A stretch of DNA of 32,000 nt, from contig JBDHVY010000001.1 in assembly GCA_039809905.1 (NCBI GenBank), positions 1,140,001 to 1,172,000 of the forward strand, given 5' to 3'. This DNA is from Candidatus Babelota bacterium. Lineage in GTDB: Bacteria > Babelota > Babeliae > Babelales > Vermiphilaceae. The notes beneath the pieces are model-generated. The model was not told the origin of the DNA. It searched no databases and was given only the letters and a program-made list of their open reading frames with translations. Position 1 is the first letter of the stretch; each line of letters begins with the position of its first letter. Position numbers and translations under genes: made by a program. This document shows, piece after piece, positions 13,420 through 32,000 of the stretch.

Positions 13420-14670
13420 ATGATGAATGCTGGTTTAATATCGAAAAATAGGAAAATAATGTTATCGGTTCTATTAATAATGTTATTCGCTTTGCCTTTG
13501 TCTGCAATGGATAAACCATTGGATCAAAAAAAGAGAGCTATTTCAAATATTCTTGAAGTGCGATGTCTTGGTAATGATGCTATTGTAGTTCACACATCTG
13601 TTCGGAAAAAGGATACTCGTAGAGACAATATTTTGTTATATAGTTTTTTTCCTGTTAAAAAAATTCATACGATATTCAGTGGAAAAAAAGATTTAAAGTT
13701 GTTATCTGTCAATTCTCAGCATAAAAAATGTGTTTTTTCTATAATTGATTTAGCTAATCCTGCTTTAGAAAAAATCAATGTATATGATGTTGGAATAAAA
13801 AAAATAAAATCTATTTCCGTCAATATATGTTCTCGAGGGGCTCAATTCATTAATAAAAGTGGTGATATGATCGTTTATGATGTAGATCGGAGCTCTGGAG
13901 CATATGTATTTGATGAACAATTAACATTAAAGCAAATAATGGTGAATTCCTTTAATGAAGAGTTTCGAGAGATATATGATTACCAATTTCAAGATGATAT
14001 GATTATGTCCTATTGTTACGGTAAACAAGCAATTTACTATGGATTAGCTAAAGAAATTGATCAAAATATGGCATGCGATTCATTTTTTACTCAAATTAAG
14101 GCTAAAATGAATTCTTCTATTACCTCTGTAGTAAGAGCTCCCTTGCTTATCTTTTTTTGTAAAAATAAGGCAAGTAATATCATTGATATGAACAAAAAAA
14201 TTGTTAAAAAAGTTCATGATTGCAATCAGATATGGTTATTTGATCTAATTGAGCGAACAAATACAAGCATTGATCATCCGGATTTTATTACTGCTTTAGA
14301 GATTCATCCTAATAAAAAAGTTTTTGTTACTTTATCTTCGCTTGGTCATATTAGCTATATTGATATAGCTCAAAAAAAATGTATTTATGGACCAGAAGAA
14401 GTTAATAAAAAGAATAAGAATAAATTATTATTTTCAGAATGTCAGCTCAATCAAGAATCAGATTTGTTATCTTTTACAGAAAATGGAAAATTTTTAGCAA
14501 TAGCTTTGAAAGATAGCTTTTTTATCAAAAAAGTTCCTTTTGAAGCCCTGTATGGTATTGATTATAAGCGGTTAATGTATATTATTTGTGTGCTAAAAGG
14601 TATAGATGCTCACATGGTTAAAGATATTCGTCAATTAATTACTTTTAGAATTGTTCAACCCTATCTATGA
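13420..14670 (+). CDS. Array member P1: leader-bearing WD40/PD40-like propeller protein, divergent type-2 C-terminal tail
   Basis: The leader is MMNAGLISKNRKIMLSVLLIMLFALPLSA/MDKP. Family blocks are KINVYDVG, ALEIHPNKKVFVTLSSLGHISYID, LLSFTENGKFLAIAL and VPFEALYGIDYKRLMYIICVLKG..VKDIRQLITF. The alternative start ATG 13459 has AGGA 7 nt upstream and would leave room for a promoter after the terminator. Confidence 0.75.
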   Translation: MMNAGLISKNRKIMLSVLLIMLFALPLSAMDKPLDQKKRAISNILEVRCLGNDAIVVHTSVRKKDTRRDNILLYSFFPVKKIHTIFSGKKDLKLLSVNSQHKKCVFSIIDLANPALEKINVYDVGIKKIKSISVNICSRGAQFINKSGDMIVYDVDRSSGAYVFDEQLTLKQIMVNSFNEEFREIYDYQFQDDMIMSYCYGKQAIYYGLAKEIDQNMACDSFFTQIKAKMNSSITSVVRAPLLIFFCKNKASNIIDMNKKIVKKVHDCNQIWLFDLIERTNTSIDHPDFITALEIHPNKKVFVTLSSLGHISYIDIAQKKCIYGPEEVNKKNKNKLLFSECQLNQESDLLSFTENGKFLAIALKDSFFIKKVPFEALYGIDYKRLMYIICVLKGIDAHMVKDIRQLITFRIVQPYL

Positions 14671-14694
14671 AATATTTTACTCTTAAAAAATAAC

Positions 14695-15171
14695 TTATTG
14701 GATTGGTTTACTGTGTTTATTTTGTATTATCATTGAACTTGAAAAAGGTTCAATTCGATCTATAACTACAATGATTTGTGCGTTTATTGCATCGGCTTGT
14801 TTTTGCTTATTTGATGTTTGAGGATCCCCATCAGTGATGGCAATAATGTGTGGATTAATGTTTTTTACTAGTTCTAAGTAATCATTAAAGCCTTCTAGTA
14901 GTGGTAATCCTATGACATGATCAACAGAACGTAATGCTAATAAATTGTGCGCTCGCTCTTCTTGCGTATGAATTGGTACACGTTTTTTGGATTGCATAAT
15001 TCGTTCATCAGGTTCCAATGCAACAACAAGAATATCGCCTAATTCTTTTGCTTTTTTTAAAAACTCAATGTGTCCAAAATGAAGAATATCAAAACATCCA
15101 CCAACAAGAATAATATGTTGTTGTGATGATACTGATATTTTTTTTGTGAGAATATAATGGTGATAATTCAT
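14695..15171 (-). CDS. Cytidylyltransferase/adenylyltransferase-fold (HxGH) nucleotidyltransferase
   Basis: The block ILVGGCFDILHFGHIEFLKKAKELGDILVVAL is the GxFDxxHxGH motif of the TagD / RfaE-II / RibL-like family. At 158 aa the size fits. The substrate cannot be assigned. Confidence 0.7.
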   Translation of the reverse strand: MNYHHYILTKKISVSSQQHIILVGGCFDILHFGHIEFLKKAKELGDILVVALEPDERIMQSKKRVPIHTQEERAHNLLALRSVDHVIGLPLLEGFNDYLELVKNINPHIIAITDGDPQTSNKQKQADAINAQIIVVIDRIEPFSSSMIIQNKHSKPIQ

Positions 15172-15723: not shown

Positions 15724-15848
15724 CTTGAGTTTCTTTTGCATCAGTGTACTCTTGTAGGCAATAAAAAAGTCTTTTGATATGGTGTTATAAAAAAAACTTA
15801 AACAAGAGCTATACACATGAATATTTTGTATTTTGGTTCAAAATCAAG
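15724..15848 (+). repeat. Intergenic module copy X, plus a duplicated copy of the first ~10 codons of maf
   Basis: The order is CTTGAGT (15724-15730), 17 nt, ACTCTTGT (15748-15755), a ~46-nt loop region, ACAAGAG (15802-15808), then ATG 15817 and aatattttgtattttggttcaaaatcaa. It aligns with 18242-18337 apart from a ~30-nt insertion. Confidence 0.75.
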
Positions 15849-31248: not shown

Positions 31249-32000
31249 TTACATTTTCAGGTAATTGGGCATGTGCTGAATTATATAAAGTGCAGAAAGG
31301 GCTAATATATTTCCAGATGTTCTCAAAGAAGATCCCGTATAAAAATTTTTCCATCCATGTTGATTTATTGTTTTTAGAAAAACATCAAGTGGTCCTTGAT
31401 AATGTTTTTTTTCTATATCAGCATGCAATTTAGTTGCCATAACCCTCAACGGTTGTGTTGTTGCAGTCAGAAGGATTGAAGAAAAACAAGCGCTTGATGC
31501 AAAAGCTGCTGCACAGTTATCACAATAATGATTGATGTAATTTTTGATAAATGGCAATCCATTGGTATATGTTGTTGCAAATAGTATTGCTTGGAATGTT
31601 GTAGGGACTATGCCACGACTCAGGCTTTTATAGCGATGAGGAAAATTATTGATAATAGTGCGCACTGGTAATCCAGTATTTTGTTTATGGACTGCTAATA
31701 ATCCTGAAGCATTAGAAAAAGGAGCTGAAGACGCACCAGCAAGAATTGCTGCAAGAGTAGTTTTTTCGTTAGGATCTTTGTTGTTATCTGAGCACCCAAT
31801 GATGTTGTTTATTAATTTATATATAGCTGTTTGCAAAGCAATAACAGGAATATTGTTAGCAGCAAGAATAGTGTATCCTCTAAAGCAATGATGTATATTG
31901 TTCATTTTTATTTTTATTTCTAATCCTTGAGCTTTTTGTGATTGCGCATAATGGAATGGCATATAGAGAAATGTAGCGAGTAAACTACTTGTTCCACCAA
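31249..32000 (-). CDS. Mitochondrial carrier family (MCF/SLC25-like) protein; N-terminus lies beyond the window end
   Basis: The frame stays open upstream of the track ATG 31962 to the window edge (GGTSSLLATFLY-MPFHY...). Three carrier-like repeats are visible. Repeat 1: PFHYAQSQKAQ ... CFRGYTILAANNIPVIALQTAIY. Repeat 2: APFSNASGLLAVHKQ ... LSRGIVPTTFQAILFATTY. Repeat 3: QPLRVMATKLHADIEKKHYQGPLDVFLKTINQHGWKNFYTGSSLRTSGNILALSALYIIQ. The carrier pattern is P.[DE]..[KR].[KR] ... G....[FY][KR]G. Confidence 0.7.
   Translation of the reverse strand, partial: GGTSSLLATFLYMPFHYAQSQKAQGLEIKIKMNNIHHCFRGYTILAANNIPVIALQTAIYKLINNIIGCSDNNKDPNEKTTLAAILAGASSAPFSNASGLLAVHKQNTGLPVRTIINNFPHRYKSLSRGIVPTTFQAILFATTYTNGLPFIKNYINHYCDNCAAAFASSACFSSILLTATTQPLRVMATKLHADIEKKHYQGPLDVFLKTINQHGWKNFYTGSSLRTSGNILALSALYIIQHMPNYLKM

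Follow-up and report, generated by a model that had tools for sequence, protein, structure and literature searches.

A divergent mitochondrial carrier family homologue, predicted to lack the salt-bridge gates, in a Candidatus Babeliales bacterium

Introduction

Textbooks treat the mitochondrial carrier family (SLC25) as a eukaryotic invention, and the few bacterial examples are seen as effectors injected into a host. What a carrier-like gene does in a bacterial genome, and in whose membrane its product would act, is the question raised by a 32,000-nucleotide stretch from a Candidatus Babelota bacterium (positions 1,140,001 to 1,172,000 of contig JBDHVY010000001.1; hereafter the window), at the far end of which, on the minus strand, a reading made earlier from the sequence alone (the sequence-only reading) had recognised a eukaryote-type mitochondrial carrier. 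We found that the protein is a very divergent SLC25 homologue, long resident in its bacterial host, which by its predicted features has parted with the charges on which the gates of canonical carriers rely, and on balance we favour a role as an importer in the bacterium's own inner membrane. Bacterial carrier homologues have been documented in the Legionellales (LncP and Lpg1137) and in some Chlamydiales and Rickettsiales (PMC3252375, PMC5621508), and a 2026 preprint describes SLC25 as being without known prokaryotic homologues (10.64898/2026.03.31.715626).

Results

The carrier open reading frame (ORF) occupies positions 31249–31998 of the minus strand and consists of 249 sense codons and a stop codon (31249–31251); translation revealed no stop before the window edge, so that the frame is open to the edge, as the sequence-only reading had stated. 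An automatic ORF list displayed it only from its first internal ATG, at 31962. It is a real gene and the larger part of a protein of ~286 residues, N-terminally truncated by the window: the feature 31249–32000 is its 3' part, and the ~37 first codons, encoding a signal peptide and the beginning of helix 1, lie outside, as deduced from an orthologue that is 90% identical (L006).

Membership of the carrier family was tested with Pfam, whose Mito_carr model (PF00153) matched the window protein with E = 9.7e-9 and 35.3 bits (gathering score 22.3), the result that the sequence-only reading had made its first check. Only the third repeat (residues 168–233, positions 31300–31497, minus strand) matched this model on its own. 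The L001 orthologue scored 45.7 bits, and all ten close homologues (44–90% identical, 271–307 residues when complete) contained PF00153. A profile built from the homologues retrieved solved carriers from the Protein Data Bank (PDB) sequences at E = 7e-7 to 5e-5, namely a Tetrahymena 2-oxoglutarate/malate carrier-like subunit and the yeast and bovine ADP/ATP carriers, and the matching stretches were collinear over repeats 1–2 and 2–3. A phmmer search of the PDB sequences with the single window protein was not significant (E = 1.4), and no NCBIfam model matched it. The window protein is, on this evidence, a very divergent homologue of the mitochondrial carrier family.

We then compared the thirds of the protein with one another using hhalign. 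Thirds of a shallow 11-sequence orthologue alignment gave no significant matches; those of a 34-sequence alignment matched in register with P = 3e-5, 8e-7 and 3e-11, and those of a 124-sequence alignment, again in register, with P = 1e-13 to 2e-22. The repeats of the window protein are short (75–89 residues each). Isolated repeat segments searched against Pfam yielded two sub-threshold matches only, to helix 1 of repeat 1 in two relatives (E = 0.005 and 0.06), and the window protein's own isolated repeat 1 and repeat 2 segments yielded none. An AlphaFold2 model of the single sequence had a predicted local distance difference test score (pLDDT) of 37.5 and spurious strands, and was discarded. 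On the 124-sequence alignment, AlphaFold2 returned a model with a pLDDT of 93.9 and a predicted template modelling score of 0.90, in which an odd-numbered helix, a short matrix helix and an even-numbered helix occurred three times (H1-h12-H2, H3-h34-H4 and H5-h56-H6). Foldseek comparison of this model with the PDB retrieved carriers only, with template modelling scores (TM) of 0.79–0.81 (Tetrahymena carrier 7w5z_M2, 0.79; human UCP1 8hbv, 0.80) and, for ADP/ATP carriers in the c-state, of 0.67–0.77 (1okc, 0.77; 4c9h, 0.76), the next non-carrier fold lying at TM ~0.2. The in-register hhalign matches and the AlphaFold2 pattern bear out the three tandem repeats of the sequence-only reading, and the high-confidence model is compatible with the six transmembrane helices on which that reading had staked itself. 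The protein is thus predicted to adopt the three-repeat, six-helix fold of the ADP/ATP carrier and UCP1.

To locate the gates and the substrate-binding site, canonical positions were mapped through the 124-sequence alignment, in which the G[I], R[DE] and R of canonical members fell in the expected columns. Every string quoted by the sequence-only reading was found in the translation (PFHYAQSQK at residues 14–22, CFRG at 38–41, PFSNASGLL at 93–101, LSRG at 126–129, PLRVMATKL at 183–191 and FYTG at 219–222). Repeat 1 (residues 1–75, positions 31774–31998, N-terminally truncated; delimited by hhalign, gate positions and predicted helices at residues 2–23, 32–39 and 42–67) has P14-F-H16-Y-A-Q19 in H1, where the canonical matrix motif Px[DE]xx[KR] is replaced by H16 and Q19, followed by matrix helix h12, F-R-G41 and, at the canonical cytoplasmic motif [FY][DE]xx[KR] of H2, Y60-K61-x-x-N64 (Y-K-L-I-N). 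Repeat 2 (residues 76–160, positions 31519–31773; delimited by AlphaFold2, hhalign and the family alignment) presents A97-S-G99-L-L-A102 at the matrix motif of H3 and an invariant HKQNTGLP motif, then h34 with FPHRYKSL, S-R-G129, and an H4 that contains Q136-A137 at contact point II and L148-P149-x-x-K152 (L-P-F-I-K) at the cytoplasmic motif. Repeat 3 (residues 161–249, positions 31252–31518; delimited by Pfam, AlphaFold2 and gate positions) shows a charge reversal at the acid position of H5 (P183-L-R185-V-M-A188), followed by KLHAD, h56 and Y-T-G222, and its H6 carries the invariant R226, G229 at contact point III, and Q241-H242-x-x-N245 (Q-H-M-P-N) at the cytoplasmic motif. The claim that all three odd helices end in a proline motif held for the presence of the strings and failed for repeat 2, in which Pro93 lies one helical turn upstream of the signature position, occupied by Ala97 in the family alignment.

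Nearly all carriers bind their substrate through two arginines, at contact points II and III. In the window protein, contact point III, which is canonically positively charged, is G229, and contact point II is Q136-A137 (Q-G in the orthologues), outside the canonical classes G[IVLM], R[QHNT] and R[DE], the last of which is the published amino-acid carrier signature (PMC6769469). The matrix signature retains no acid/base pair and keeps its proline in two of the three repeats only, and the cytoplasmic signature has an acidic residue at none of its three positions, in a network that is variable in bona fide carriers too (PMC7611774). As read from the alignment, the orthogroup is without any of the six gate salt-bridge pairs and without both binding-site arginines. 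The sequence-only reading had described the salt-bridge charges as largely replaced; the loss is more extreme, with 0 of 6 pairs left and the arginines gone, and its suspicion of an altered transport mechanism appears well founded given this loss. The orthogroup conserves the polar motifs HKQNTGLP, FP[HN]xY[KR]SL, TYTNGLP, TTQP, KLHAD and RTxGN, and 46 columns are invariant among its 11 sequences.

An exhaustive HMMER profile search over 1.84 billion cluster representatives (50% identity clusters) placed this orthogroup in a much larger family. Relatives were found at E ≤ 1e-3 in 141 clusters, most of them proteins of 260–310 residues with a single full-length match at 20–30% identity, and Mito_carr individually matched all 124 aligned members. 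A word-indexed search with profile A3 gave few matches, which were mostly eukaryotic and included no named bacterial members. The wider family is orthodox at most of the positions discussed above: H1 has K in 88/124 members, H3 has D/E in 87/124, H5 has D in 90/124 and K/R in 87/124, glutamine braces occur in ~93/124, and R[DE] at contact point II and R at contact point III occur in 89/124 and 74/124, respectively. The intermediate relatives P0015, P0017 and P0023 retain R-E at contact point II and, because the wider family is orthodox as well, the window orthogroup is best seen as a derived offshoot. It shares with the family the arginine four residues after the H6 glycine (R226; 109/124 members) and the proline at the acid position of the H4 cytoplasmic motif (P149; 75/124). 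By these sequence features the window protein belongs to what we define here as a signal-peptide-bearing carrier family of the Babeliales/Dependentiae.

We know of no eukaryotic carrier with a Sec signal peptide. In the L006 copy an in-frame start lies further upstream, preceded by a Shine-Dalgarno-like AAGGGG, and the N-terminus of this copy reads MYKFVSFLLYCTIIHMHA and then SESSIVLKNMSDCARTGLI before reaching residue 1 of the window protein, which supplies the 37 missing residues. All full-length orthologues begin with a Sec-type segment of ~18–20 residues, made up of a short Lys/Arg n-region, a hydrophobic core of 10–14 residues and a c-region with small residues at -3 and -1, and followed by 15–20 polar residues before H1; examples are MYKFVSFLLYCTIIHMHA followed by SES, MYIIAGFLLSCLTTCAYA followed by SER and MKLLSILISCATIYTHA followed by AMH. 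According to a home-made hydrophobicity and charge rule, a signal-peptide-like N-terminus followed by 15–25 residues before H1 is present in 63–64 of 123 family members, with a few more recognised by eye. P0001 and P0010 had been called from internal Met codons, and their signal peptides were thus missed. A lipoprotein signal was considered for N-termini with LLLCC and rejected, as no small residue precedes the Cys in the way a lipobox requires. Lys and Arg residues of the window protein number 11 in the matrix-side loops vs 2 on the other side, a distribution that places the 'matrix' loops in the bacterial cytoplasm. The view of bacterial carriers as rare, host-targeted effectors, which the sequence-only reading had offered for comparison, therefore has to be qualified in both respects: this protein is a member of a family of 141 clusters, and its orthologues carry Sec-type signal peptides, which point to the bacterium's own inner membrane.

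The window is bacterial, encoding FtsK, a Mur ligase, RsmH, tRNA-Gln, a cytidylyltransferase, a MerR/HspR-like regulator, an M48 protease and a GH3 glycosidase. Its RsmH is 79–85% identical to proteins of metagenome-assembled genomes (MAGs) labelled 'Candidatus Babeliales bacterium' by NCBI, and the host is therefore placed in the Dependentiae (TM6, Babelota), a phylum of obligate intracellular bacteria of protists. The G+C content of the carrier gene (0.343) equals that of the window (0.342) almost exactly, and comparison with the 90%-identical L006 copy gave a ratio of non-synonymous to synonymous substitution (dN/dS) of 0.19 at dS 0.28. Gene order around the carrier (three GH1 genes, carrier, GH3, a porin-like 565-residue protein, a PI-PLC-X-like protein, MerR and M48) is conserved, with synteny from the last GH1 gene (GH1c) through M48 in L001, L004/5, L008, L009 and L010; six independent assemblies keep this neighbourhood, one of which is a 1.52 Mb MAG contig with a carrier that is only 45% identical. 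Distant paralogues (24–26% identity) sit among FtsW, BipA, TruA and ankyrin/WD40 genes, the last being typical of the phylum. The carrier is thus a long-resident gene, under purifying selection, of an obligate intracellular Candidatus Babeliales bacterium. Sequence homology, predicted fold and bacterial gene context together uphold the central claim of the sequence-only reading, a eukaryote-type carrier in a bacterial genome.

Downstream of the carrier gene, and separated from it by a 91-bp spacer (31158–31248, minus strand), lies a gene for a GH3 glycosidase (30057–31157, minus strand; Pfam Glyco_hydro_3, 4e-80) that is closest to the NagZ beta-N-acetylhexosaminidase and scores 159 bits against NF003740, under the cut-off of 207. 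We found no terminator-like site in the spacer and none between carrier and GH3 in L004 either, and the two genes are therefore possibly co-transcribed. NagZ is normally cytoplasmic; unlike it, the window enzyme carries an N-terminal signal peptide (MNMRFFLIMFCSSFTFIYS). The GH3 reading frame starts at the signal peptide in the window and L001 copies (MNMRFF... and MNIRLS...), and the public call in L004 (10852–12039, 395 residues), which overlaps the carrier stop codon, probably starts ~29 codons too early. Translational coupling of the two genes, suggested by a 4-bp overlap of the L004 gene calls, was rejected for this reason. In L001, L004 and L010 the carrier is preceded by three GH1 beta-glucosidase-like genes, whose products have signal peptides as well.

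Several other groups of genes in the window were noted. Four paralogous proteins of 565–673 residues, 30–46% mutually identical, are encoded at 10–1413 (minus), 3230–5065 (minus), 5345–7366 (minus) and 28348–30045 (plus); the last of these has a signal peptide and an aromatic C-terminal end (...GGFVY) and matches no Pfam or NCBIfam model. None of the three complete copies of this family matched Pfam, and one copy lies in the conserved carrier neighbourhood. These four proteins are probably the major outer-membrane porin family of Babeliales. A tandem array of eight genes on the plus strand (15817–25061) encodes proteins of 225–440 residues, most of which start with a signal-peptide-like segment; seven are mutual paralogues (22–63% identity), a short ORF at 18239–18916 matches none of the others, and no Pfam family was recognised. 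A related gene at 13420–14670 (plus) had a weak WD40 match, and the array proteins may be secreted beta-propellers. The gene at 27133–28248 (plus) encodes a 371-residue protein with a signal-peptide-like N-terminus that gave no Pfam match in our scan, and its L004 orthologue (13861–14895) has precomputed matches to the PI-PLC X-domain and Rv2075c_cat; the product may be an exported phospholipase C-like enzyme. Finally, a trio on the minus strand (25658–27019), kept in L001 and L004, encodes a MerR/HspR-like regulator (159 residues), an M48 (HtpX-like) protease and a 155-residue protein, and may be a heat- or envelope-stress unit.

Discussion

In whose membrane would this carrier act? We lean towards a Sec-inserted importer in the bacterial inner membrane that takes up a host-derived, probably uncharged solute with altered gating, and consider it most likely that the protein resides in the bacterium's own membrane and is not injected into host mitochondria. 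The signal peptide would take the nascent protein to SecYEG/YidC, leaving the mature N-terminus at the start of helix 1 in the periplasm, either cleaved or anchored, and the six helices would partition into the inner membrane. With the Lys/Arg-rich 'matrix' loops facing the bacterial cytoplasm and both termini in the periplasm, the protein would reproduce the mitochondrial topology and could move a small host-derived solute into the bacterium. Gates of Gln, Asn, His and Thr would replace the ion pairs and, with a central site that lacks arginines, suggest a polar substrate that probably carries no charge. One weak guess would be a sugar or amino sugar freed by the exported GH1/GH3 glycosidases of the adjacent genes. 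A low energy barrier probably separates the two states, and this would favour facilitated diffusion (uniport) over strict exchange. Our guess of a neutral polar substrate and facilitated diffusion follows from the loss of the site arginines and from the link drawn between weak gate networks and uniport (PMC7611774).

Several points weigh against this proposal. The alignment supplied to AlphaFold2 contains canonical carriers, and the model therefore leans to the carrier fold. The window copy is N-terminally truncated, so that its signal peptide is taken from the orthologues, and the rule that we applied is a heuristic under which the segment may be a cleaved peptide or a signal-anchor; the family members as a whole are characterised from sequence. 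The link between carrier and glycosidases is a weak one of gene order in broadly syntenic genomes, and in L007 the GH3 gene is not downstream of the carrier. A strong intrinsic terminator, moreover, separates GH1c from the carrier gene (L004 9722–9745, a 10-bp G+C-rich hairpin stem and then a T run; L006 about 424–450), and the carrier gene therefore begins its own transcription unit; an operon of the carrier with the three GH1 genes was rejected on these grounds. The absence of type III/IV secretion, which bears on the effector alternative considered below, is taken from papers on other Dependentiae rather than the source genome. Finally, loss of the gate charges together with the binding-site arginines is also characteristic of the non-transporting proteins MTCH1/2 and SLC25A46 (PMC7611774).

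This last point makes a non-transport role a serious rival, improbable as we judge it: the protein would be a carrier-fold insertase, scramblase, scaffold or receptor of the bacterial membrane, comparable to MTCH1/2 and SLC25A46. Having lost its six gate ion pairs together with the arginines at contact points II and III, the orthogroup shows exactly the pattern described for the outer-membrane non-carrier members of SLC25 (PMC7611774). However, a full six-helix bundle with three matrix helices is confidently predicted here, whereas the helices of MTCH2 and SLC25A46 are truncated or deviant. Moreover, the polar motifs of the cavity and gate region are strongly conserved, with the 46 invariant columns and the low dN/dS reported above, and close paralogues have carrier-like binding sites, all of which suits a transporter better.

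Less likely still is an effector of the LncP type, delivered to the host and inserted into the mitochondrial inner (or another host) membrane, where it would alter metabolite fluxes. Experiments on bacterial carrier homologues have been confined to LncP and Lpg1137 of Legionella, and both of these are translocated effectors (PMC3252375, PMC5621508). Dependentiae live inside protists, a preprint title describes Chromulinavorax as associating with host mitochondria (10.1101/379388), and exported hydrolases, along with many proteins that have signal peptides, are encoded close to the carrier. Nevertheless, from what the Sec pathway does, a protein with a Sec signal peptide and six hydrophobic helices should be caught in the inner membrane; an N-terminal signal peptide is dispensable for eukaryotic carriers and LncP alike, and the canonical N-terminus without a Sec signal that characterises LncP does not match the full-length orthologues, including L006. 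Dependentiae have been reported to possess Sec, type II and type IV-pilus components and no type III/IV secretion (PMC4776705, PMC6561590), and we found no secretion-system genes within the 32 kb window. The family is also very large and diverse, and the nutrient-carrier-like binding-site signature of its wider membership suits importers better. We favour the own-membrane importer over the effector because of the Sec-type signal, the Lys/Arg topology and the lack of reported type III/IV secretion.

An artefact (eukaryotic contamination, mis-assembly, a decaying recent transfer or a chance ORF) might be suspected in a family that is otherwise almost exclusively eukaryotic and from a protein of which the third repeat alone passes Pfam, but it can be dismissed because at least six independent assemblies, the 1.52 Mb contig among them, carry this gene in one and the same bacterial neighbourhood, and because of its native G+C content, purifying selection, orthologues at 44–90% identity and paralogues in bacterial contexts; together these exclude contamination, recent transfer and pseudogene status.

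We put forward more tentatively than the importer itself the wider idea that the whole phylum may use the SLC25 fold as a native inner-membrane nutrient importer. At least 60 clusters with Sec signals would reproduce the mitochondrial topology, most of them resembling amino-acid carriers, and the window orthogroup would be an offshoot that has lost both gates and arginines and that imports a neutral solute, perhaps a sugar released by the glycosidases, without salt-bridge gates. If true, this would break the rule that SLC25 carriers act only in eukaryotic organelles, and would both open the fold to study in a bacterial system and inform the debate on how the family arose. A large and old signal-peptide-bearing family in Dependentiae would show that the SLC25 fold can be inserted via the bacterial Sec pathway and can serve an energy and nutrient parasite as its own importer, beside the NTT ATP/ADP translocases. 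The orthogroup would also be a natural experiment, with an intact scaffold under purifying selection and none of the ion pairs of alternating access, and therefore a direct test of how essential the gate networks are. For Babeliales, whose metabolism is poorly understood, it supplies further candidate transporters.

That a carrier gene occurs in such a bacterium is already known; what is new is the architecture and the site of action that it suggests. Carrier-family transporters were listed among the nutrient importers of Babela massiliensis (TM6/Dependentiae) in one sentence, with 'unknown specificity' (Pagnier et al. 2015, PMC4378268). Our search of the literature on Dependentiae carriers found nothing beyond this sentence, and no description of the signal peptide, the size of the family in Dependentiae, an amino-acid-type site or a gate-less orthogroup. 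The Babela carriers are among the nearest known systems, sharing phylum, Babeliales and family with the window protein, and their authors assumed nutrient import; the comparison is by description, as that paper contains no analysis of signal peptides, family size, gates or binding sites.

LncP and Lpg1137 are likewise SLC25 homologues of intracellular, amoeba-dwelling bacteria, and Lpg1137 has very divergent repeats, as does the window protein. LncP, a substrate of the Dot/Icm type IV system, becomes inserted in host mitochondria and has retained the canonical motifs, whereas the Babeliales carrier has, in its orthologues, a Sec-type signal peptide, belongs to a phylum with no reported type IV secretion and is without gate charges. 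The eukaryotic amino-acid carriers (AGC, ORC, SLC25A29 and GlyC) share with the wider Babeliales-type family R[DE] at contact point II, R at contact point III, the glutamine braces and two of the three matrix ion pairs; the window orthogroup is unlike them in having Q[GA] at contact point II, G at contact point III and no ion pairs. MTCH1, MTCH2 and SLC25A46 have, like the window protein, kept the carrier topology and lost the network charges, but these eukaryotic proteins of the outer membrane have helices that are truncated or deviant, whereas nine helices are predicted intact in the window protein, in which the repeat 2 proline has become Ala, with a Pro one turn upstream. The mitochondrial carriers of giant viruses, the best structural matches in BFVD (TM 0.78–0.81 at 12–18% identity), were compared by fold only. 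They too place the carrier fold outside eukaryotic nuclei, in parasites of protists, and are expected to act in host mitochondria; their link to the window protein is the family that they share.

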